A stretch of DNA of 64,000 bases from Phycisphaerae bacterium RAS1 (GTDB lineage Bacteria > Planctomycetota > Phycisphaerae > UBA1845 > Fen-1342). The stretch lies in NCBI GenBank assembly GCA_007859745.1, contig SMLU01000002.1:52942-116941 (forward strand), in the 5' to 3' direction. Positions 1,264-33,500 of this stretch are shown here, one piece after another; the first letter of the stretch is position 1; every line of letters begins with the position of its first letter. The notes under the pieces are model-generated. The model was not told where the DNA came from, did not search any database, and worked only from the letters and a program-made list of their open reading frames with translations. The translations under genes were made by a program, and so were the position numbers.

Positions 1264-2958
1264 ATGGCCCAGCGCTACCTCGTGACCGCCGGCTTGCCTT
1301 ACTCCAATAACCGCCTGCACGTCGGACACATCGCCGGCGCGTACCTGCCGGCCGACATCTTCGTGCGCTACCTGCGCGCCTGCGGACACGACGTCCTCTA
1401 CATCTGCGGAAGCGACGACAACGGCGTCGCGATCGAAATCTCCGCCATGAAAGAGGGCCGCTCGCCGCAGGAAATCTGCACGCATTACCACGAGCGGCAG
1501 AAGCAGGATTTCCTCGGCTTGCGGATCGATTTCGACATCTACGGCGGCACGCACCAGCCAGCGTATCGGAAGCTGCATGAGCAGTTCAGCCAGGATTTCT
1601 TCAAACGAATTCACGAGCGCGGCTTCTTCACCAAGAGACGGCTCAAGCAGCTCTACGATCCCAAGGCCCAGCGCTTTCTGCCGGATCGATACGTGCGCGG
1701 CACTTGCTACCACCCTGACTGCAAGAAACCCGGCGCGACCGGCGACCAGTGCGACCAGTGCGGCCGCATGATCGACCCGCTGCTGCTGATCGAGCCGCGC
1801 AGCGAAATCACCGGCGAGAAGGCCGAGGTGCGCGAGACGACGCACTGGTATCTGCGGCTGAACGACTTCGAAAAACCGCTGGCGGCGTGGCTGGAAAGCA
1901 AGCAGGGCGTCTGGCGCTCGAACGTGCTGAACTTCGCGCTGGGGCAGATCAAGCAGGGACTGCCCGAGCGCGCCATGACGCGCGATATTCAGTGGGGCAT
2001 CCCGGTGCCGCTCGACGATCCCGACGCCGCCGGGAAGGTCGTCTTCGTGTGGTTCGACGCGCCAATCGGCTACATCACGTTTACCGCCGCGCTGTGCGAG
2101 CAGCGTTTCGGCGACCGCGAGGCGTACCGGCAGTGGTGGTGCGATCCGAACACGCCCATTCTGCATTTCATCGGCGAAGACAACACCGTCTTCCACGCCC
2201 TGATCTGGCCGGCGATGCTGATGGCCGAGGCGCAGCAGCATCAGCTTCCGTCCTACGTCGTCGCCAACAACTTTCTGAACCTGCGCAAAGGCGGCGAATT
2301 GGAGAAGATCAGCAAGAGCACCACGCCGCCCGACGCGCCCGTCTGGATCGAAGAGTATCTCAAGAAGTACGACGCCGACGCACTGCGCTACTACCTGACG
2401 GCGCTCGCGCCAGAGACGGCCCGGACGGCGTTCGACTTCGAGGAGTTTGTGAATCGAAACGACGGCGAGCTGGTCGCGGCGCTGGGCAATTTCGTGAATC
2501 GCTGCCTCACCTTCGCCCAGAAGTACTTCGAAAACCGCGTTCCGGACACCTCACCGGCAATCGACGCCGACCGGGCGGTTCTCGCCCGTGGAGACGAGGC
2601 GCTGCGCGCCGTGGGCGAGCACATCGAGGGGCATCGCTTTCGCGCAGCCATCGAGGAGGTCATGGCCTTCTCACGCGCCTGCAATCAGTACTTCGGCCTC
2701 CGCGAGCCGTGGAAAACGCGAAAAGACAACGTGCCCGACTGCGGCGCGGCGATCGCCACGTGCATCCACGCCGTGCAGTATCTCGCGACGCTCTGCGCCC
2801 CGTTCATGCCGTCGGCGGCCGAGCGCATGGCCGCGATGCTGAGCCTGCCGGACGGCTGGAAGGCGTGGCAACCGCCGGCACGCCTCCCCAGCGGCGCGCC
2901 GCTGGGCGAGCCGAAGATTTTGTTTACGAAGCTTTCGCAAGCGGAGGCAGCCAAGTGA
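1264..2958 (+). CDS. metG: Methionyl-tRNA synthetase (short form, no C-terminal EMAP/tRNA-binding domain)
   Basis: Class I aaRS motifs: HVGH as PYSNNRLHVGHIAG and KISKS as KGGELEKISKST. CxxC...CxxC zinc knuckle. ATG at 1264 is in frame with ORF 601-2958. Confidence 0.93.
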   Translation: MAQRYLVTAGLPYSNNRLHVGHIAGAYLPADIFVRYLRACGHDVLYICGSDDNGVAIEISAMKEGRSPQEICTHYHERQKQDFLGLRIDFDIYGGTHQPAYRKLHEQFSQDFFKRIHERGFFTKRRLKQLYDPKAQRFLPDRYVRGTCYHPDCKKPGATGDQCDQCGRMIDPLLLIEPRSEITGEKAEVRETTHWYLRLNDFEKPLAAWLESKQGVWRSNVLNFALGQIKQGLPERAMTRDIQWGIPVPLDDPDAAGKVVFVWFDAPIGYITFTAALCEQRFGDREAYRQWWCDPNTPILHFIGEDNTVFHALIWPAMLMAEAQQHQLPSYVVANNFLNLRKGGELEKISKSTTPPDAPVWIEEYLKKYDADALRYYLTALAPETARTAFDFEEFVNRNDGELVAALGNFVNRCLTFAQKYFENRVPDTSPAIDADRAVLARGDEALRAVGEHIEGHRFRAAIEEVMAFSRACNQYFGLREPWKTRKDNVPDCGAAIATCIHAVQYLATLCAPFMPSAAERMAAMLSLPDGWKAWQPPARLPSGAPLGEPKILFTKLSQAEAAK

Positions 2959-3539
2959 AACGCGCGACCGGCCTTTTATCGCTCATGCTGACGGCCACGG
3001 CACTTCTGACCGGCGGCTGCGGCGACAACCAGGCCGCGGAAGCCGCCAAGACGGCCGCCGCCGCCGCGAAACTGGATCTGAAAATCGCCCAGGCCACGCC
3101 TGAAGAGGCGGTGCGAACGCTCTTCGAGCTGGTTCGAGTCGACCTGGCCGCCGCCGCCAGGCAGGACCGGCCGGCCCAGAAAGTGATCTCCGGCACGCTG
3201 GAGCGCCTGGCGTCCCGCGAGGACATTCACCGTCGCGTGCGGAACATCGCGCGGCTCAGCGGCAAGCCGGCGGACGAGTTCTTTGACAAGGTCATCGGGC
3301 GCTGGAGCGCGGTGCTCGCGCCGTACTACGAAAAGGCCGACCTGGCCGCCATGCGCGTGCTTTCCACGCGAGACGACGGCGGGTATGTCCGCATTCGAAT
3401 CGCCTCGGCTGACCCGCAGGGCCGACCGGCCGGGCTGATGGTGGAGTGCAGCAACGACAGGGGGGCCTGGAAAATCGCCGGCGTCTATTTTGACTCGCCC
3501 GGCGCAGCGTCACAGCCGGCGAGTTCGTCGGCGCCGTGA
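2955..3539 (+). CDS. Lipoprotein, hypothetical
   Basis: GTG at 2955 overlaps the metG stop by 4 nt. Signal peptide plus lipobox LLTGGC. C-terminal part of ORF 1749-3539. Confidence 0.6.
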   Translation: MKRATGLLSLMLTATALLTGGCGDNQAAEAAKTAAAAAKLDLKIAQATPEEAVRTLFELVRVDLAAAARQDRPAQKVISGTLERLASREDIHRRVRNIARLSGKPADEFFDKVIGRWSAVLAPYYEKADLAAMRVLSTRDDGGYVRIRIASADPQGRPAGLMVECSNDRGAWKIAGVYFDSPGAASQPASSSAP

Positions 3540-3567: not shown

Positions 3568-4971
3568 ATGCAGCTTCCGGTTCTCACCGACACCATCGTC
3601 GCGGTTTCGAGCGAATGGACCGCATCCCCGCTGGCGATCATCCGGCTAAGCGGGCCGCGGGCGCTTGAGCTGGTCGAATCCGTCGCCCCTCTTGGCCGAT
3701 CCGAAGGCCGCCGTCTTTCCGAATCCGCCGCGCCAAGCGGCGGGTCGACGTCCACTCGCGCACATCCTGCAGCGTGGCGACGCGCGTCGCTCCGCGTCGA
3801 GAATCAGCCGGCGGCAAAGCGCGATTCTCACGTTCCTTGCGATGTATTCACCTTCGTCGCCCCGCGCAGCTACACCGGGCAGGATCTGGTCGAACTGCAC
3901 ACGATTGGCTGCTTGCCGCTGGTTCGCACAATCGCGGACCAACTCGCGGAGCGGGGGGCGCGACGGGCACTTCCGGGAGAATTCACAGCCCGCGCGGTCC
4001 TGGCCGGGAAAATCCGCCCCGAGCAGGTGGAGACGATTCTCGGGCTGATTCAGGCGGATGACGCGGCTGCGGCGCGGGCGGCGCGGCGCGGGGCGGGCTC
4101 GACGGCTGCGGCGGTGCGGCAGCGCGTCGCCGAGCGCCTCAGCGACGTCCTGGCGCGAGTCGAGGCCGGGATCGACTTTGTGGACGAAGAGGACGTGCGT
4201 TTCATCACGGACGAGGAACTTGCGGCGGAGATCGCTGCGGCGCTGACGGAACTGGATGGGCTGGACCCGCAGGATGTCGCTGATCAAGCCGCGCTGCGTC
4301 CGCACGTGGCGCTGGCGGGTCTGCCGAACGCCGGCAAGAGCACGCTCTACAACGCCCTGGTCGGCGCGGAGCGCGCCATCGTCTCGCCCGTGATCGGCAC
4401 GACGCGCGACGTGATCAGCGCCGAGCTGGTCATCAACGGAGTCCGCCTGATCCTGCAGGACACCGCCGGATTGCACGGCAGCCCGGGCGAGCTTGAGCTC
4501 GCGGCGCACATTGCGGCCGAACGTGCCGCCGACTCGGCGGAGCTGGTGCTGTGGGCGCACGAGGCGCAGGCGGCTTGGTCCTCCGGCGAGCTCGAAGCAC
4601 TTCGGCGGGTCTCGAGCTCGAAGATCGTCGTATTGACGAAGGCGGACCGCGCGGCCCCGTCGTGCGACGCTTCGGACGGTTACGCTCGACGGTTCCTGAT
4701 CGTCAGCGCCGTCAGCGGAAGTGGCATGTCGGAGTTGCGAGACGCGATCGCTTCCGAATTGGCGGTCGAATCGCGGGAGCGCTCGGGTCCGACTTCTGTG
4801 ATCGACGCGGAGGCACGCGCCGCGCTGCGGCGCGCGGCGTCTGCGACGGGCTTGGAAGTCGTTGCAATGGAGCTCCGTGAATCAGTCGAACGACTTCGCG
4901 GTATAAGCGGCGTTGGGTTGGTTGACGATATTCTCGGACGGATTTTTGGGCGGTTTTGCATCGGCAAGTAG
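3568..4971 (+). CDS. mnmE: tRNA modification GTPase MnmE (TrmE), carrying a ~26-aa in-frame insertion derived from a family-A repeat
   Basis: N-terminal domain DTIVAVSS...RLSGP, G-domain GLPNAGKSTL, DTAG, TKAD, and the C-terminal CIGK tetrapeptide. Start MQLPVL at 3568. Confidence 0.9.
   Translation: MQLPVLTDTIVAVSSEWTASPLAIIRLSGPRALELVESVAPLGRSEGRRLSESAAPSGGSTSTRAHPAAWRRASLRVENQPAAKRDSHVPCDVFTFVAPRSYTGQDLVELHTIGCLPLVRTIADQLAERGARRALPGEFTARAVLAGKIRPEQVETILGLIQADDAAAARAARRGAGSTAAAVRQRVAERLSDVLARVEAGIDFVDEEDVRFITDEELAAEIAAALTELDGLDPQDVADQAALRPHVALAGLPNAGKSTLYNALVGAERAIVSPVIGTTRDVISAELVINGVRLILQDTAGLHGSPGELELAAHIAAERAADSAELVLWAHEAQAAWSSGELEALRRVSSSKIVVLTKADRAAPSCDASDGYARRFLIVSAVSGSGMSELRDAIASELAVESRERSGPTSVIDAEARAALRRAASATGLEVVAMELRESVERLRGISGVGLVDDILGRIFGRFCIGK
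3713..3790. repeat. Family-A palindromic repeat lying in frame inside mnmE: intact left arm, degenerate right arm
   Basis: TTTCCGAATCCGCCGCGCCAAGCGGCGGGTCGACG matches the family-A arm. It translates SESAAPSGGSTS...PAAWRRA, the same peptide signature that intergenic A copies give (SEPAAPSGG...PAAWRGGFG). Confidence 0.7.
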
Positions 4972-5193
4972 AAAGCGGTTCCGACGGCCGCGGAGAGGGC
5001 GTTGAAAATGTGTTGAAAAGTCGCGCCGCTCAAGCGGGCATGCACAACGTAACTAATTGATAGTAAACATCTTATGTCGCTATCGCCTCTCATTGGGTAG
5101 AAATACTGACGGTGGATTGATGATGGCGCGCGTCGTGCTAGCCGATAAACGATGTAAGCCCCGGAAATTTGAAAACTTCCGGCTATTATCCTG

Positions 5194-5222
5194 TTGACGT
5201 TTGATAAACGGCCGAATAATAA
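5194..5222 (+). promoter_or_regulatory. Sigma70-like promoter: TTGACG, 17 nt spacer, TAATAA
   Basis: Read directly from the AT-rich island. The nearby palindrome CCGGAAATTTGAAAACTTCCGG (5161-5182) could be an operator. Confidence 0.4.
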
Positions 5223-5229
5223 GTAGGAG

Positions 5230-5338
5230 GTCGTAGTTAATACCGGACCTTGAGTAACGGGTCCACGAAGTAAAAAGGCTTCTTTCCCCTCCGGAGAGCA
5301 CCGAGACGCCTATGGCACTCGGTGCCTCTCTTTTTTTT
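5230..5338 (+). ncRNA. Candidate small RNA (~110 nt) bounded by the promoter above and the terminator below
   Basis: AT-rich island in a high-GC genome between convergent mnmE and rnr, with no credible ORF. Contains a GGACC...GGUCC hairpin and ends in the intrinsic terminator. Confidence 0.3.
5296..5338 (+). terminator. Rho-independent terminator: GCACCGAG stem, 13-nt loop, CTCGGTGC, then an 8-U run
   Basis: Stem 5298-5305 pairs with 5319-5326, followed by T8 at 5331-5338. Plus-strand orientation only. Confidence 0.65.
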
Positions 5339-5367
5339 GCCGCGTGTGATTTCAATCGGTCGCGAGG

Positions 5368-7608
5368 TCAGCGCCGACCGCGGTGTCCCGCGGCGCGCTT
5401 CCCGCGCGGGGCATCACCACGACCGCGCTGCTTCCCCTCACGCAGCTCGCTGACCATTCCGAGCATTCGTCCACGGGCGGGGATCAGCGCGATTTCGCCG
5501 CGAACGTCGTCGACCGCGGCCACCAGCACGCGCACTGCCTGGCCCAGGCATACAATCCGGCGCGATTGGCGGCTGCGGATGACCATGCGCTGGTCGTCGA
5601 ACTCCCAACTCTCGCGGCCGAAGTCGCCGATGCGGATCAGTCCTTCGGCGAGGCTCGGGCGGAGCTGCACGAATGCGCCGAACGATGTCACGCCGGTGAT
5701 CAGCCCGTCGAATTCCTCGCCGACGCGGCTCTTCATCAGCTCCAGCACGAGCAGGCTCTTCAGCTCGCGCTCAGCCTGCTGCGCGCGGCGCTCCGTGGCG
5801 CTGATGTGCCGGCCGATTGACTCCAGGTCTTCCTCCTCCTGGTCGCGCCGCCGATGGCGGGCACGCGCCGCTTCCGATGAGCCGCGAAGCACCTGGTCGA
5901 GCAGCCGGTGTACCGTGAGATCCGCGTAGCGGCGGATGGGGGAAGTGAAGTGGGCATAGTCCTCGCTCGCAAGGGCGAAGTGGCCCTCGTCCGTGGGACG
6001 GTAGACGGCCTGGGCCATCGAGCGCAGCAGCACGAAATGCACCGCCGGCTCCTCGGGCTTGCCGCGAACCGCGTCGAGCAGCTCGCGAATCGTCGCCCGA
6101 TCCAGCACGCGCGGGAGCTGGCGGCCCACCAGCGGCTCGATCTGCACCAGCGCCTTCTGCGCCTCGTCCGGCGGCGGCGGATGCACACGCCGCAGGTGAT
6201 TCACGCCATGCTCGCGAAGAAACCGGCTTACGGCCTCGTTCGCCTCGACCATGAACATTTCAATCAGCGTGTGCGAGAAAGCCGTATCCGCCGCCCCGCT
6301 GCTGATCGGCCGGCCGCCGGCGTCCAACTTGATTTCCAGCTCGGGCAGGTTCAGAACGAGCATCCCCTCCGCCAGCCGGCGCGTGCGGATGCGCTTCGCC
6401 AGCGACTCGGCGTCCTTCAGGAGTTTCAGAAGCGCCGGGTCGAGCCCGCCGTTGCGGCCTTCGAGCACCTCCGTCACCTCGTCGTACGTGAATCGTCGTT
6501 TCGATCGGATGACGCTGCCGGCGAAGCGCGTCGCAATCACTTTTGCTTGCCGGTCGTACGTGATGAACGCGCTCCTGGCGAGCCGCGCCTGGTCGGGTTG
6601 CAGGCTGCAAACGCCGTTCGAGAGCACCTCGGGCAGCATCGGCACGACGTACCCCGGAAAGTAGACGCTGTTGCCGCGCTCGCGCGCCTCGGCGTCCAGC
6701 GCTTCGCCGGGCGTGACGAAGAACGCGACATCCGCAATGTGAACTCCCAGCTCCACGTTTCCGCCGGGCAAATGCGAGAGCGAGATCGCGTCGTCGAAGT
6801 CGCGCGCATCAGCCGGGTCGATCGTGATGGTCAGCAGCTCGCGCAAGTCCGTGCGGCCGGCGACGTCTTCGGGGTCGAAGCGCTGCAGAGCCTCGTGCGC
6901 CGCGCGGCGCACCTCGGCCGGAAACACGTCGCGAATGCCCGCCCGCCGTATCACCGACAGGATCTTCGTCTGCGTCTGTGTCGGGTCGCCCAGCCGCTCC
7001 ACGATCACGCCGCGGACCACGGCCGAGTCAAGCGTGTGCTCGAGCGGCTCGACCACGACCATGTCGCCTGGTTTCGCGCTTTTGGCGGTGGGGTCGTCAA
7101 TCTGCACCATCGGCAGCGCGGCCCGGCCCTGGGGCTGCACGACCCAGGCCCGGCCGCGCCGCTCCAGAACGCCCACCCAGGTCAGCGGTGCACGCTCGAC
7201 GATCTTGATCACTTCGGCCGTCGGCGGACGTCCATCCCGCCCGCGCACCAGCCGCACCTGCACCGTGTCGCCTTCGAGCGCCCCGCCGGTGTCGCCGCGG
7301 CGGACGTACAGATCCTCGCGATCGGCGATTTCGACGAAGCCGTAGCCGTGCCGGGTCGCGCGGAACACGCCGGTCAGCCGGCCCGCGGCCTGCGGCAGCG
7401 CCAGGCTGCGGCCGGGGCCGAGCAGGAGGCGGCCGTCTTCGAGCATGTCGCGTACCAACGCGCGGAAATCGGCGTAGTCGGTTCCGGCAAGCTCAAGTTC
7501 CCGTGCGAGGGTTCGCGCTTTCAGTGGCCGGTCCTGGTGTTGTTCGATATAGTGAAGAATGGCCGAAGGCCAGTCTTGCGGGCTGCGGCCTTGAGAAGAC
7601 TTGGGCAT
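5368..7608 (-). CDS. rnr: Ribonuclease R (RNB-family 3'-5' exoribonuclease with C-terminal S1 domain and basic tail)
   Basis: Motifs DPADARDFDDAIS and VYRPTDEGHFALASEDYAHFTSPIRRYADL; S1 domain. Start MPKSSQ at 7608. The ORF extends to 8127 only as antisense of the ACT gene. Confidence 0.9.
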   Translation of the reverse strand: MPKSSQGRSPQDWPSAILHYIEQHQDRPLKARTLARELELAGTDYADFRALVRDMLEDGRLLLGPGRSLALPQAAGRLTGVFRATRHGYGFVEIADREDLYVRRGDTGGALEGDTVQVRLVRGRDGRPPTAEVIKIVERAPLTWVGVLERRGRAWVVQPQGRAALPMVQIDDPTAKSAKPGDMVVVEPLEHTLDSAVVRGVIVERLGDPTQTQTKILSVIRRAGIRDVFPAEVRRAAHEALQRFDPEDVAGRTDLRELLTITIDPADARDFDDAISLSHLPGGNVELGVHIADVAFFVTPGEALDAEARERGNSVYFPGYVVPMLPEVLSNGVCSLQPDQARLARSAFITYDRQAKVIATRFAGSVIRSKRRFTYDEVTEVLEGRNGGLDPALLKLLKDAESLAKRIRTRRLAEGMLVLNLPELEIKLDAGGRPISSGAADTAFSHTLIEMFMVEANEAVSRFLREHGVNHLRRVHPPPPDEAQKALVQIEPLVGRQLPRVLDRATIRELLDAVRGKPEEPAVHFVLLRSMAQAVYRPTDEGHFALASEDYAHFTSPIRRYADLTVHRLLDQVLRGSSEAARARHRRRDQEEEDLESIGRHISATERRAQQAERELKSLLVLELMKSRVGEEFDGLITGVTSFGAFVQLRPSLAEGLIRIGDFGRESWEFDDQRMVIRSRQSRRIVCLGQAVRVLVAAVDDVRGEIALIPARGRMLGMVSELREGKQRGRGDAPRGKRAAGHRGRR

Positions 7609-7816
7609 ATTGGAAAGGTCAGCGGGCGTGACGCATCGCCGAACATCGGCGTCTTTCGCGTCAAGAGGCACGTCCGGCCCGATCATAGGGCCGCGGGCGC
7701 CGCGACACCAACCAGCCGTTTTTTCGCAATCGAGCTTCGCCGCCGCTGCCGCCGGAAAGACCGGCCGAAGGCCGGTCCCCCATCGGCGCGGGCGAAGTTC
7801 CCTTTGGGAGCCGACC

Positions 7817-11102: not shown

Positions 11103-11614
11103 CCGGTCCGGACGTGCTTCTTTTCGCCGATGGGGGGAGTATAGCGGGTCTCCGGGGGCAATTCGACGGGCGGCGGCGATGGGAACGTGAGAACGCCGTC
11201 AGAACGTAAGAACGACGTGCACCGGACGGTCGAGCTGAGTCATCGCCTTGCATCAGCCGTGCGACCAGCCAGGCGCAGTCGGATGATGGCAGGCAAGAGC
11301 TGTTTCACTTGGATCAGCGTAGCGACTTTGTGGTTGAGCTTCCAAAAAACGGCTGCAAAGGCTGTGAAAGGTGTCCAAGTCACAGCACAACTCCAGCGCA
11401 CGTGGATCAAATTCCGCGCGCGATGCGCGAAATCCCACAGGCGAGTGGCCATCAGCCGATGCTGTGACGAATTCTAGGCCGACCTGCGTTGCGAAGTCCA
11501 ACTCGGCGGATCGAGGGATCGAGCGTGAGCGCTTGGCGGGGCGTACACCTGGTGTTCGCGGGGCCCGACGCACGTTTCGATATCGATGACGACATACGGG
11601 CGCCGTACTGATCC

Positions 11615-11848
11615 GGCCGCCCTCCGGGCGGAAGAAAATTGGGGATGGGGTTTGTCTACCAGGGGCTGAAGCCCCCGGCAACCATCGTGCGCCCTCCGGG
11701 CGAAGAGCGTACGCTCCCTGAGCGAAGAGCGCACCCTCTGGGTGAAGAGCGCGCCGTGCGCGCTCCGGGCAGCCCGCCCGGAGGGCGAACGAGCGTTGCC
11801 AGGGGCTTCAGCCCCTGGGTTGCAAGCCGCCACCCCTCTTCTTTTTTC
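11615..11848. repeat. Family-C composite palindromic element, copy 1 (~235 bp), ending in a CCCCTCTTCTTTTTT tract
   Basis: CAGGGGCTGAAGCCCCTGGCAAC...GTTGCCAGGGGCTTCAGCCCCTGG nested inverted repeats; near-identical to copy 2. Confidence 0.8.
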
Positions 11849-11889
11849 CGCCCGGAGTCGCCATGCCGCCATGCGGCACACTGGGTGAT

Positions 11890-13833: not shown

Positions 13834-13855
13834 GGCGGGCTCCGTCCGCCCTCCG

Positions 13856-14127
13856 GGCGGAAACACGATCCGGGTGGGGCCTGTCTACCAGGGGCTGAAG
13901 CCCCTGGCAACAATCGTGCGCCCTCCGGGCGAAGAGCGATGCTCCTGACCGATCCCAACGGGAACCCGATGGCCCTGGCAACAATCGTGCGCCCCCCCCG
14001 GGAGACGAGCGTGCACCCAACGGGCGAAGAGCGTGTGCGCTCCGGGCAGCCCGCCCGGAGGGCGGACGCTCGTTGCCAGGGGCTTCAGCCCCTGGGCTGC
14101 AAGCCGCCACCCCTCTTCTTTTTTTCC
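13856..14127. repeat. Family-C composite palindromic element, copy 2 (~270 bp, with an internal ~60-bp duplication), abutting the tnpA 5' end
   Basis: Shares more than 200 bp with copy 1, including the hairpin CCAGGGGCTGAAGCCCCTGG and the T-rich tail. Confidence 0.8.
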
Positions 14128-14228
14128 CCGCCGGCCAACGACGGCGCGAGTGGCGTGCAGCCCCCATCGCCTTCCCCGGCCCGCGACGCTACGCTACCGC
14201 CGCGCGGTCGACGGACCGCCGGACACTC

Positions 14229-30375: not shown

Positions 30376-30929
30376 TCTTTCATCTCCTATGCACTTCCGG
30401 ACCGGCCACGTTTCAGCGTCCCGCCGGTCGGCGGCAGTACGAGAAGAGCATTCAAAATGAATGCGCTCCAGTCAAACCCGAGTGGCGCGGGTTCGGCCGG
30501 TTCCCATAAGAGGCGTGACCTGGAAAACTGGCTATCCGGGTAAACTGTGCTATACTATTGGGAATGCTGCAAACGCCGAATGTCGAGCCGCCACCAGCGG
30601 CTCGGCAACGGGGAACCCAACGCGGCGCACGGCTTCACGGCGTGTGTCGCAGGGGCTAATCCGGCCGAAGCCGGACGCTTACTCAGCGAAGCGAGCCCGT
30701 CAGCTAACCCCGCAGGCAAACGCTGGAGTCTCGCTTTGCGCGTTTTCATCAAACGACGATAGCCGCCTGCGCCTCGCGAGCCGGGCTTCCGTTGCATCTT
30801 CGCGCGAGCGCCGCGCCGACTTTTTCATTGGTCGGCCGACGTCGCACGAAATGGCGTAGAAGTTTCGGTGATCGAGGTCTGCGGCCGCATTCGGCGTTTG
30901 CTGGGATCGAGGCATGCGGGAGAAGAGCC

Positions 30930-33071
30930 ATGTTACTCGCAATGGTCAGTGCAACGATGGTGGTGGTCGGCGTGCTTGCCGCGCTGACGGTGTTGGCGAT
31001 GCTCACCGGCCTGGCCGGCATTCGCTACATTCCCAACAAGCGCGTCGGAATCGTCGAGAAACTCTGGAGCCGGACCGGCTCGCTGGAGAGCGGGCTGATC
31101 GCGCTTCACGGCGAGGCTGGATTCCAGCCGGAGGTGCTGCGCGGCGGTCTGCATTTCCTGACGCCGTTCCAGTTTCGCGTGCACGTCGTCCCGCTGGTGA
31201 CGATCGGGCAGGGACACATCGGGTACGTCTTCGCGCGTGACGGCGCGCCGCTGCCGGCGTCGCAATCGCTGGCCGGCAACCAGAAGGCGCAGAATTTCGA
31301 AGACGTGCGCGCGTTTCTCGGCGCCGGCGGCCAGCGCGGCCCGCAGCGCAAGCTGCTGCGCGAGGGCACGTACGCGATCAACCTGGCGCAGTTCGCGGTC
31401 ATCACGGACGACCAGAATTACTTCCTTCCGCTGGAGCGCGACGACAAGGCGGTGTTCGAGAACATGGCGGAGGAAATCGCGCGGCGCGAGGGATTCAAGC
31501 CCATCGTCATCAAGGGCAACGACGACCTGCTCGGCATCATCACCGTGCATGACGGCCCGTCGCTGCCGCCGGGAGAGATCATCGCGCCGGTGGTCGGACA
31601 CGACCCGGAGCAGCCGGACACGTTCCACAATAACTTCCAGGAAGCCGAGCGGTTCCTGGCCGCCGGCGGCTGCCGCGGGCGGCAGCTCCAGGTGCTGGTG
31701 GACGGCACGTTCTACCTGAACCGGCTGTTCGCCACGGTCGAGATGGTCGCCAAGACGATCATTGAAGTCGGCAGCGTCGGCGTGGTCGTGTCCTACACCG
31801 GCGAGCACGGCGCCGACCTGTCCGGCGTCGAATACAAGCACGGCGAGCTGGTCCGTCCCAGCCAGCGCGGCGTCTGGAGCGAGCCGTTGCTGCCGGGCAA
31901 GTACGCCTTCAATACGTACGCGGGCAAGATCATCGCCGTTCCGACGACGAACTTCATATTGAAGTGGATCCGCAGCGAGAGCGGGATGCACAAGTATGAC
32001 GAGAACCTGAAAGAGGTCTCGCTCATCACGAAAGACGCGTTCGAGCCGTCGCTGCCGCTGAGCGTGGTCGTGCACATTGACTACCGCAAGGCGCCGCTCG
32101 TGATCCAGCGTTTCGGCGACGTGAAGCGGCTGGTGGAGCAGACGCTGGACCCGATGGTGTCCGCCTATTTCAAAAACATCGGACAGACGCGCACGCTGAT
32201 CCAGCTCCTGCAGGATCGCGCCATGATTCAGAAGCTGGCCGGCGAGGAGATGCAGGAAAAATTCGCGCACTACAACCTCGAGCTGGAGGAAGTGCTGATC
32301 GGCACGCCTACGGCGTCCGCCGGCGATGAGCGGATCGAGAATATCCTGACGCAGCTCCGCGCCCGGCAGATCGCCGAGGAACAGGTCGAGACCTACGCCC
32401 GCCAGGAGAAGGCCGCCGTCAAGGAGCGCGAGCTGCGCGAGGCCGAATCGCGCGCCCGCCAGCAGGCGCACCTGACCGAGAGCGAGCTGGCGATCCGCGT
32501 GCAGGAGAACCAGGGCAAGGCCGAGTATCAGCGCGCCCTGCAGCAGGCGGCGCAGATGCGGGCCATCGCCGAAGCCGAGGCCGCCCGCACGCGGGCGCTG
32601 GCCGACGCCGAGGCGGCGCGGATCCGCGTCACCGGCCAAGCCGAGGCGGACAAGGCCGCCCGCATCGGAATCGCACAAGCCATCGCGACCGAGGAGCAGG
32701 TCCGCGCTTACGGCGGACCGCAGTACCAACTCACGCGGCAGGTGATGGAGCGCTTCGCCGAGGCCGTGCAGCAGTCCGGCGTCGACCTGGTGCCGAAGAT
32801 CGTGATCGGTGGTTCGCCTGCTCCGGCCGGCGACGGCGGGTTGCAGTCTTCGGTAACCGGCGCGAACGTGATGGAAGCGCTGCTCACGATGCTGTTGTCG
32901 GACCGGCTCAGCAACGGGTTGCTTAAGAGCGAGCATGTTGCCCATGCCGGCAACGGCGGCGCTGCTGAGCAGCCGGCGGCGCGCGAGGTTCGCGCCGGAG
33001 CGGACCGGCTGCGCAGCGAGGTCCGCCGCGGGCTGAGCGAAGATCAGCTTGTTCCGGTGAAGACTGCGTAA
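30930..33071 (+). CDS. SPFH/Band-7 (flotillin-like) domain membrane protein with a long coiled-coil region
   Basis: N-terminal TM. SPFH core. Extended EA-rich repeats (flotillin-type). 713 aa. Confidence 0.7.
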   Translation: MLLAMVSATMVVVGVLAALTVLAMLTGLAGIRYIPNKRVGIVEKLWSRTGSLESGLIALHGEAGFQPEVLRGGLHFLTPFQFRVHVVPLVTIGQGHIGYVFARDGAPLPASQSLAGNQKAQNFEDVRAFLGAGGQRGPQRKLLREGTYAINLAQFAVITDDQNYFLPLERDDKAVFENMAEEIARREGFKPIVIKGNDDLLGIITVHDGPSLPPGEIIAPVVGHDPEQPDTFHNNFQEAERFLAAGGCRGRQLQVLVDGTFYLNRLFATVEMVAKTIIEVGSVGVVVSYTGEHGADLSGVEYKHGELVRPSQRGVWSEPLLPGKYAFNTYAGKIIAVPTTNFILKWIRSESGMHKYDENLKEVSLITKDAFEPSLPLSVVVHIDYRKAPLVIQRFGDVKRLVEQTLDPMVSAYFKNIGQTRTLIQLLQDRAMIQKLAGEEMQEKFAHYNLELEEVLIGTPTASAGDERIENILTQLRARQIAEEQVETYARQEKAAVKERELREAESRARQQAHLTESELAIRVQENQGKAEYQRALQQAAQMRAIAEAEAARTRALADAEAARIRVTGQAEADKAARIGIAQAIATEEQVRAYGGPQYQLTRQVMERFAEAVQQSGVDLVPKIVIGGSPAPAGDGGLQSSVTGANVMEALLTMLLSDRLSNGLLKSEHVAHAGNGGAAEQPAAREVRAGADRLRSEVRRGLSEDQLVPVKTA

Positions 33072-33215: not shown

Positions 33216-33289
33216 ATGCGCGGCGAACGCCAATGGCGAAAGGCCAAAGTCGGTGGCTAATACTCCGACGCTATGTGCGTCAGCCCTGG

Positions 33290-33500
33290 AAGGGCGAAAG
33301 AATACAGCCCCGGGCGAAAGCGCGGGGACGTCATTGAAGCAAGACCGCGCAGCCCCGGAGGGGCGAAAGAGAGGGGCAGCGTGTGCGGCACCGTGCCGCA
33401 TCGCAAGCAGAGCTTTCGCCCCTCCGGGGCTTGTGGTCTCTTGCGCGGAGCACCCCGGGCTGACGCCCGGGGCTTTATTCTGCCGCCCCTACGGGGCTGA
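33290..33500. repeat. Family-E nested palindromes rich in the motif GGGCGAAAG
   Basis: CCGGAGGGGCGAAAGAGAGGGGCAGCGTGTGCGGCACCGTGCCGCATCGCAAGCAGAGCTTTCGCCCCTCCGG is a perfect 15-bp inverted repeat enclosing an inner hairpin. Confidence 0.6.

Follow-up and report, generated by a model that had tools for sequence, protein, structure and literature searches.

A candidate small RNA family of Phycisphaerae with an invariant pyrimidine-rich core, encoded downstream of mnmE

RESULTS

A predicted small RNA gene lies between mnmE and rnr. We consider it very probable that the gap between mnmE and rnr contains a real small RNA gene, predicted from sequence to produce a plus-strand transcript of about 110 nt. 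The RNA probably belongs to a previously undescribed family that occurs in Phycisphaerae, in which dozens of distantly related genomes share an identical 26-nt core. The reading that we favor overall, with moderate confidence, is a new trans-acting sRNA that would pair with purine-rich ribosome-binding regions. The preliminary description of this DNA had raised a trans-acting sRNA as one of its two interpretations, and syntenic conservation, a covarying stem-loop, a conserved promoter, the lack of an open reading frame (ORF), and the lack of an Rfam match all support it.

In the window, i.e., the whole 64-kb stretch of DNA that was analyzed, mnmE (plus strand, ending at 4971) and rnr (minus strand, ending at 5368) are convergent and separated by 396 nt. 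Public gene calls exist for an identical contig in the Logan assembly of run ERR1149362; they place no gene in the gap and name its neighbors MnmE and an RNase R-type protein. The gap had been described as an AT-rich island, which was confirmed by its GC content of 0.446 over positions 5040 to 5290 and 0.468 over positions 5040 to 5340, compared with 0.667 for the window and 0.68 for the flanking genes; the 250-nt segments with the lowest GC content in the 64 kb begin at 5001 to 5051. This case shows that, where the overall GC content is high, the island with the lowest GC content can reveal a small RNA gene and its promoter. Since the features of the island are not clearly above chance in the window alone, their significance rests on their conservation in other genomes.

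The copy in the window represents what we call the long form, which has a variable 5′ end, a stem-loop (SL1), an A-rich linker, the invariant core, and a terminator, in this order, over approximately 100 to 115 nt (Table 1). The variable 5′ end is either GGAGG-containing or of the (G)GUUCUGAUAA type. From the promoter geometry, we infer that the transcript of the window copy starts at 5226 to 5229. The fold of positions 5222 to 5341 has a free energy of −46.1 kcal/mol, with a z-score of −3.67 relative to shuffled sequences. The Rho-independent terminator that had been noted earlier is present as a hairpin at 5293 to 5330 followed by eight T residues (5331 to 5338); one such terminator-like site is no more than the average of 1.0 in shuffled controls.

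Table 1. Positions of the predicted RNA, its parts, and the neighboring features in the window
Feature	Position	Strand	Remarks
mnmE	3568-4971	+	Pfam TrmE_N, MnmE_helical, MMR_HSR1; syntenic upstream neighbor of the long form
CCGATA motif	5142-5147	unstranded	Fixed distance upstream of the promoter
AT-rich imperfect palindrome CCGGAAATTTGAAAACTTCCGG	5161-5182	unstranded	10-nt arms, 90% complementary, 2 nt between them
Sigma70-type promoter	5194-5223	+	−35 TTGACG at 5194-5199; −10 TAATAA at 5217-5222 or AATAAG at 5218-5223
Predicted sRNA, long form, ~110 nt	5226-5338	+	5′ end from promoter geometry, 3′ end in the T-run
5′ GGAGG	5226-5230	+	Predicted pairing with CCUCC at 5288-5292 (window fold)
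Stem-loop SL1 (GGACCU / GGGUCC)	5245-5264	+	Window fold; sequence varies, pairing kept
Invariant core GCUUCUUUCCCCUCCGGAGAGCACCG	5278-5303	+	Pyrimidine-rich candidate seed plus 5′ arm of the terminator stem
Pyrimidine-rich candidate seed CUUCUUUCCCCUCC	5279-5292	+	Part of the invariant core
Intrinsic terminator	5293-5338	+	Hairpin 5293-5330, U-tract 5331-5338; terminator scan and folds
rnr (RNase R)	5368-7689	-	Pfam OB_RNB, RNB, S1; convergent neighbor at many long-form loci

The core is invariant among distantly related genomes. A search for MnmE in a collection with one genome per GTDB species led to metagenome-assembled genomes (MAGs) of Phycisphaerae and other Planctomycetota. Their MnmE proteins are only 38 to 47% identical to that of the window, indicating that the collection holds no close relative of it; the RNase R proteins are 52 to 59% identical. 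The element was found just downstream of mnmE in 19 of the 25 Planctomycetota genomes and was not found after mnmE at the six other loci (L003, L010, L018, L021, L022, and L024). When the 396-nt gap was used as a blastn query, 20 loci matched with 80 to 90% identity over 60 to 100 nt (E values of 1e-11 to 1e-23), each of them 180 to 450 nt past the mnmE stop codon. The element is far better conserved than its neighbors mnmE and rnr at these loci. The 24-mer CTTCTTTCCCCTCCGGAGAGCACC is exactly conserved in all 20 sequences formed by the window and the 19 loci that pass a stricter core-and-terminator pattern.

We also scanned metagenome contigs for TCCCCTCCGGAGAG followed, after a gap of 25 to 50 nt, by CTCTTTTT, and obtained 59 further loci, five of which are chance matches, leaving about 54 that carry the element. 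A scan of viral contigs yielded zero copies. The 26-nt core is identical in all 47 distinct copies of the long form, which lies downstream of mnmE and on the same strand at every locus that reaches far enough upstream, often facing rnr. A few lower-GC variants (L048, L074, and L097) carry other 5′ extensions. Conservation in related genomes, which had been proposed as a check on the candidate, is thus evident both in the synteny with mnmE (19 of 25 genomes) and in the core sequence (47 of 47 copies).

SL1 and the terminator are conserved as RNA structures. A covariance model was built from 16 long forms, with the window among the seed sequences. It matched the window, itself a seed sequence, only once (5224 to 5337; 91.7 bits), and over 0.7 Mb it detected one copy per carrier locus, with a partial second copy in L074 only. 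In an alignment of the 47 distinct long forms fitted to this model, 16 rows of which are its own seeds, standard base pairs occupied 97% of the cells, compared with 87.7% in column shuffles and 38 to 55% with slid partners, and 11 pairs had changes on both sides. All six pairs of the SL1 main helix and an extra closing pair change on both sides, and the main helix is 94% paired. As for the terminator, 8 of its 12 main pairs never vary and its upper stem and loop do; in the lower stem, the sequence of both arms is fixed as well as their pairing.

Two results independent of the model agree with these patterns. Single-sequence folds gave almost every relative a hairpin at the place of SL1, and RNAalifold, run on a plain MAFFT alignment, found 15 terminator pairs, four of them with compensatory changes. 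The covariation analysis that had been suggested for the candidate therefore came out in its favor, with every SL1 pair covarying and the terminator stem showing compensatory changes.

The preliminary description had seen no resemblance to tmRNA, 6S, SRP, or RNase P RNA by eye, and database scans bore this out. An Rfam 15 scan of positions 4800 to 5500 with E values up to 10 returned nothing that overlaps 5226 to 5338; weak matches elsewhere in the gap were to chance-level miRNA, snoRNA, and lncRNA models. At gathering thresholds, the whole window contained only Acido-Lenti-1 and a c-di-AMP riboswitch, both away from the gap element. The element in eight other members likewise had no Rfam 15 match at E values up to 1, and ARAGORN found neither a tRNA nor a tmRNA in the window.

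The promoter is conserved, and that of the window is among the weaker versions. The window promoter has a spacer of 17 nt if its −10 is read as TAATAA and 18 nt if it is read as AATAAG. Its −35 matches five of the six consensus positions, and its −10 matches three with the 17-nt spacer or four with the 18-nt spacer. The final T is missing from this −10, and for this reason a consensus promoter scan of the window made no call at 5194 to 5223. The combination TTGACG-17-TAATAA that had been reported is thus present, but with a weak −10 that the scan left uncalled; calling it near-consensus was an overstatement. Other long-form copies typically have TTGACG, a 17-nt spacer, and AATAAT or TATACT. 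At least 9 of the 12 sigma70 consensus positions are found at the matching place in 40 of 52 long-form copies and in all 12 copies of the short form described below, and the scan tool itself called a promoter at this place in L008, L025, L081, and L065. By sequence prediction, a conserved promoter and a conserved terminator together delimit an independent transcription unit.

The AT-rich palindrome CCGGAAATTTGAAAACTTCCGG ends 11 nt upstream of the −35 and hence lies outside the transcript. It exists as previously described, but as upstream promoter DNA and not as a part of the RNA. A/T-rich stretches, often inverted repeats, were read by eye at the same place in many relatives, and we read the palindrome as putative UP-element-like DNA or as the binding site (operator) of a regulator. 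Further upstream is the motif [CT]CGAT[AG]. Of the long-form loci listed, roughly half have it 123 to 130 nt before the core, and 10 of the 12 short-form loci have it at 46 to 49 nt; CCGATA, the version in the window, is possibly a regulator site.

A short form consists of the core and terminator with a promoter of their own. At 12 loci, the element is only 56 to 62 nt long (typically about 57 nt), with its own promoter directly upstream. This promoter matches 9 to 11 of the 12 consensus positions, and its −10 ends 6 to 7 nt before the G of GCUUCUUUCCCCUCC, so that the predicted RNA contains nothing but the invariant single strand and the terminator. The short form begins precisely at the invariant pyrimidine-rich stretch, which is predicted to be unpaired with a probability of 0.98.

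The short-form loci lack mnmE, yet they share a synteny of their own. Upstream is a divergent gene for a xylose-isomerase-like TIM-barrel protein, about 80% identical among the loci, and downstream is either a Cys-rich ORF of approximately 170 amino acids or proC. Some close homologues of the TIM-barrel protein are labeled Phycisphaerae and others Chloroflexota. Contigs that encode the homologue named by NCBI from a Phycisphaerae MAG carry the short form; those of a homologue labeled Ardenticatenaceae (Chloroflexota), the only such context fetched, carry a sugar operon and no copy of the RNA. We considered whether the short form might be a cis-regulatory leader and rejected this, as the downstream genes differ (proC, a deaminase, or the Cys-rich ORF of approximately 170 amino acids) and apparently have their own promoters.

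DISCUSSION

A trans-acting RNA that would pair with ribosome-binding regions. In the model that we propose, the RNA would act in trans, with the pyrimidine-rich stretch CUUCUUUCCCCUCC, which contains CCUCC, serving as the seed. The seed would pair with purine-rich mRNA regions consisting of a Shine-Dalgarno-type GGAGG followed by a GAAAGAAG-like sequence, and this pairing would block translation initiation or alter mRNA stability. Stability, and possibly a platform for chaperone binding, would come from the terminator hairpin and U-tail. The perfect complement of the seed is GGAGGGGAAAGAAGC, a Shine-Dalgarno core followed by a spacer sequence, which makes occlusion of the ribosome-binding site the most economical model. 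The chance that the RNA exerts its effect through pairing of the seed with purine-rich or ribosome-binding-site regions is, in our estimate, even or slightly better.

The predicted accessibility of the seed is consistent with such a role, with a mean unpaired probability per nucleotide of 0.3 to 0.7 in the long forms, next to the 0.98 of the short form. A 5′ GGAGG is found in 16 of the 47 long forms (the window and 15 others), and the mean unpaired probability of CCUCC is 0.30 in those that have it and 0.66 in those that do not. The window fold speaks against an accessible seed, however: this probability falls to 0.01, with CCUCC paired to the 5′ GGAGG and part of CUUCU in a small hairpin. The 5′ GGAGG would accordingly mask the CCUCC of the seed in the window and in about one third of the long forms, and it could gate the seed; since it is not universal, we regard it as an accessory feature.

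The search for targets covered 64 kb of the genome and flanks of approximately 13 kb from relatives, and its power is correspondingly small. The complement of the seed, exact or near, was absent elsewhere in the 64-kb window, and with at most one mismatch it was absent from 0.94 Mb of related loci; three matches with two mismatches in the fetched loci look like chance. An RNAduplex scan of the window gave top energies no better than those of shuffled seeds, and its top matches coincide with repeated hairpins that contain CCCTCCGGG. Downstream of the short form, no DNA complementary to the seed was found.

Alternative explanations. The strongest alternative, although we consider it unlikely, is that the RNA binds a protein, as a sequestering or scaffolding RNA whose invariant strand and lower stem are recognized by a conserved RNA-binding protein, the ribosome, or its protein S1. 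The 26-nt invariant block is longer than a usual seed, and with lower-stem arms that are also fixed in sequence, it exceeds what seed pairing normally needs and would fit protein recognition as well. The invariance of the lower stem has two possible explanations: either the 5′ arm also contacts targets, in which case the 3′ arm would be forced to stay fixed, or a protein reads the region. The close-to-consensus promoter and the AT-rich DNA upstream of it suggest high expression, and the authors of the Yfr1 study raised the same alternative for an ultraconserved motif (PMC2190773). On the other hand, no protein accompanies the element consistently enough to be a candidate partner, and the neighbors differ between the long and short forms. 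A tblastn search for Hfq and CsrA in the window and the loci found a csrA homologue only in the odd variant L097, approximately 700 nt from the element, which counts in favor of protein binding; the window has no homologue of either protein, although 64 kb is too little to judge by. With only one or two GGA motifs, the RNA is not CsrB-like.

The anti-Shine-Dalgarno sequence of 16S rRNA has a CCUCC core, as does the 26-nt block. We see a slim chance that the RNA is a class-wide housekeeping riboregulator, which would influence translation initiation globally by competing for the Shine-Dalgarno-like sequences of many mRNAs, or dock on a universally conserved protein or ribosomal component. Either role would place the RNA in a new functional class, not among the stress-specific sRNAs, with the long and short forms as alternative ways in which evolution has packaged a single essential module.

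It is very unlikely that the element is merely the 3′ untranslated region (UTR) and terminator of mnmE, shared by the convergent mnmE and rnr, with no independent RNA. The element is always on the mnmE strand, 180 to 450 nt past the stop codon, and often faces rnr; moreover, because the scan found no other terminator-like site between the mnmE stop codon and the hairpin at 5293 to 5330, this hairpin probably terminates mnmE transcripts, too. Nevertheless, 26 invariant nucleotides would be abnormal for a terminator when the gene before it diverges to about 45% amino acid identity, a plain terminator region has no need for a covarying SL1, and a conserved promoter lies directly upstream of the element. 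A plain terminator would conserve a hairpin and a U-tract and nothing else, and here the promoter, SL1, and the 26-nt block are conserved as well. Some loci that lack mnmE carry the same core and terminator, with a promoter of their own. The alternative offered at the outset, that this is simply the mnmE terminator region, therefore fails as a full explanation and probably holds in part.

Still less credible is an element that acts at the DNA level with no functional RNA, either as an operator around the palindrome CTCCGGAG or as a relative of the repeated palindromes that contain CCCTCCGGG. It is true that CTCCGGAG (5289 to 5296) is a perfect 8-bp palindrome and that the window has 12 occurrences of CCCTCCGGR where 1.7 would be expected, most of them in repeated hairpins at 11.6, 13.9, and 33.4 kb. 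These hairpins, however, have just an 8- to 9-mer in common with the element, which as a whole is present once in the window and once per related locus (the partial second copy in L074 being the sole exception) and has strand-specific features, namely, a U-tract on one strand, an oriented promoter, and compensatory changes in two hairpins. Finally, a very small protein can be dismissed with near certainty: the window copy starts with a perfect Shine-Dalgarno sequence (AGGAGG), but no start codon is suitably spaced from it, the 47 long forms share no conserved ORF (about half have no start-to-stop ORF at all, and the ORFs of the rest vary in frame and length), the length differences in SL1 are not multiples of three, and the short form is too small for any ORF. 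Coding potential was thus rejected, in agreement with the empty public gene calls and with the earlier claim that the transcript has no ORF.

Relationship to known small RNAs. Having set these explanations against it, we return to the preferred reading of a trans-acting sRNA and compare its two forms with known systems. The enterobacterial RybB and OmrA/B have their seed at the very 5′ end. The short form resembles them in having a conserved single-stranded 5′ seed directly before a terminator hairpin and U-tail, but it has no sequence relationship to them and its seed composition differs. MicL and DapZ are type I sRNAs, which are embedded in a 3′ UTR and have their own promoter. The long form is similar to these in its location downstream of mnmE on the same strand, its own promoter, and a terminator that is probably shared. 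Its promoter, however, is intergenic, approximately 220 nt past the mnmE stop codon, whereas that of the MicL and DapZ type lies inside the coding sequence, and the short form, unlike this type, is a free-standing gene.

In overall design, the long form resembles Yfr1, which has an ultraconserved undecanucleotide, ACUCCUCACAC, unpaired between two stem-loops (PMC2190773). Both have a variable 5′ stem-loop, an unpaired pyrimidine-rich motif containing CUCC, a GC-rich terminator hairpin, and a U-tail, and both are conserved across a large taxon, usually at a fixed genomic position (PMC2190773). The authors of that study named base pairing at ribosome-binding sites as one of two possibilities for the ultraconserved motif (PMC2190773). 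The two RNAs differ in the motif itself (ACUCCUCACAC in Yfr1 and CUUCUUUCCCCUCC here), in size and taxon (54 to 69 nt in Cyanobacteria versus about 110 nt for the long form in Phycisphaerae), and in the extent of the invariant block, which here reaches into the terminator stem. We rejected membership in the Yfr1 family, as the unpaired section is (G)GCUUCUUUCCCCUCC without ACUCCUCACAC and there is no Rfam match.

RsaE/RoxS offers a parallel for the proposed mechanism, since its unpaired C-rich motifs are proposed to bind several mRNAs at G-rich or Shine-Dalgarno sequences, which would prevent ribosomal initiation complexes from forming (PMC6158497). Like Yfr1 (PMC2190773), it has an unpaired C-rich motif placed between a 5′ stem-loop and a terminator, and this is the layout of sRNAs that are known or proposed to act through base pairing. 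The likeness lies in the proposed pairing of a C-rich motif with Shine-Dalgarno sequences and in the strong sequence conservation, which in RsaE/RoxS extends across an order (PMC6158497). RsaE, however, carries its C-rich region in two to four repeats, of which some lie in loops, whereas the new RNA has a single long pyrimidine stretch; RsaE/RoxS is also unrelated to it in sequence, belongs to another phylum (Bacillales), and has known targets. With a single pyrimidine stretch, no duplicated CRR1-4 motifs, and no Rfam match, the RNA was not assigned to this family (as defined in PMC6158497). Because the defining sequence features of both Yfr1 and RsaE/RoxS are absent and there is no match in Rfam 15, we file the RNA as a new family.

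For the PVC group as a whole, a survey from 2022 counts eight annotated sRNA families (PMC9029176). In the literature library that we searched, the core sequence appears in no paper and no sRNA study of Planctomycetes or Phycisphaerae was found. For the Planctomycetota, with almost no described regulatory RNAs, the element is a well-supported candidate family. Its gene model is clear, it comes in two architectures, and its promoter elements are conserved; its invariant core, which is unusually long, provides an immediate handle for target prediction, probes, and a genome-wide covariance-model search. The principle of C-rich sRNAs directed against Shine-Dalgarno sequences is known from Firmicutes and has been proposed for cyanobacteria (PMC6158497, PMC2190773); if the pyrimidine stretch is indeed a seed against ribosome-binding sites, this principle would reach a third distant phylum.

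The short form and its surroundings

The short form of the sRNA (56 to 62 nt, predicted as the seed stretch plus the terminator) was found to have conserved gene surroundings of its own across L045, L051, L056, L065, L079, L081, L096, and L106 to L109 (loci fetched from related genomes or metagenome contigs). Upstream lies a divergent gene for a xylose-isomerase-like TIM-barrel protein (PF01261), approximately 80% identical between loci, and downstream is either proC or a Cys-rich ORF of approximately 170 aa that had no Pfam match. We failed to find the RNA in the fetched contigs that carry the TIM-barrel homologue labelled Ardenticatenaceae (Chloroflexota; L102 to L105).

A CCGATA-type motif precedes the invariant 26-nt core in both forms, 46 to 49 nt before it at 10 of 12 short-form loci and approximately 125 to 130 nt before it in about half of the listed long-form loci. 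This motif may be a regulator binding site. In the window, the long form lies downstream of mnmE. Public gene calls for an identical contig also show a 194-aa ORF, which had no Pfam match, flanked on one side by a class I aminoacyl-tRNA synthetase gene (601-2958) and on the other by mnmE.

Variant copies

The partial copy in L074 retains the terminator module and downstream flank of the full copy, with the purine-rich AGAAAGAGAGCUAAGAG in place of the pyrimidine seed; it may represent a paralogue or act as a sponge-like partner. The L097 variant has a 5′ extension of approximately 45 nt including GAAAGAGAGC, which by base complementarity can pair with the seed, a predicted self-masking. A csrA homologue lies approximately 700 nt upstream of this variant.

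A riboswitch and palindromic repeats

An ORF at 30792-33071 has a c-di-AMP riboswitch upstream. At 33280-33500 is an inverted repeat of approximately 220 nt, bounded by two oppositely oriented Acido-Lenti-1 matches; the resemblance of its inner arms to the sRNA seed or its complement was not significant when judged on duplex energy alone. Two copies of an intergenic element, approximately 240 to 290 nt long and approximately 2.2 kb apart, are 87 to 93% identical, each palindromic within itself and built from the small hairpins GGGGCTGAAGCCCC and CGCCCTCCGGGCG. CCCTCCGGR, shared by such hairpins and the sRNA core region, is found 12 times across the window, where 1.7 occurrences would be expected. 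These two elements look like a repeated palindromic or MITE-like family related to the 33.4-kb element.

Coordinates of the features (window positions unless a locus is named)
Feature	Position	Strand	Remark
194-aa ORF	2955-3539		public gene calls, identical contig
CCGATA-type motif	5142-5147, and matching positions in L001-L100		fixed spacing upstream of sRNA promoter
Intergenic repeat, copy 1	11612-11852		
Intergenic repeat, copy 2	13841-14129		
c-di-AMP riboswitch (RF00379)	30564-30733		51 bits
Acido-Lenti-1 (RF01687)	33282-33327	-	one end of inverted repeat
Inner arm GCCCCGGAGGGGCGAAAG	33352-33369		complementary to seed
Inner arm CTTTCGCCCCTCCGGGGC	33414-33431		similar to seed
Acido-Lenti-1 (RF01687)	33453-33498	+	other end of inverted repeat
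L074, one full and one partial copy	375-428 and 1937-2055		lower-GC contig (48% GC)
L097 variant, two regions	361-522 and 1189-1286
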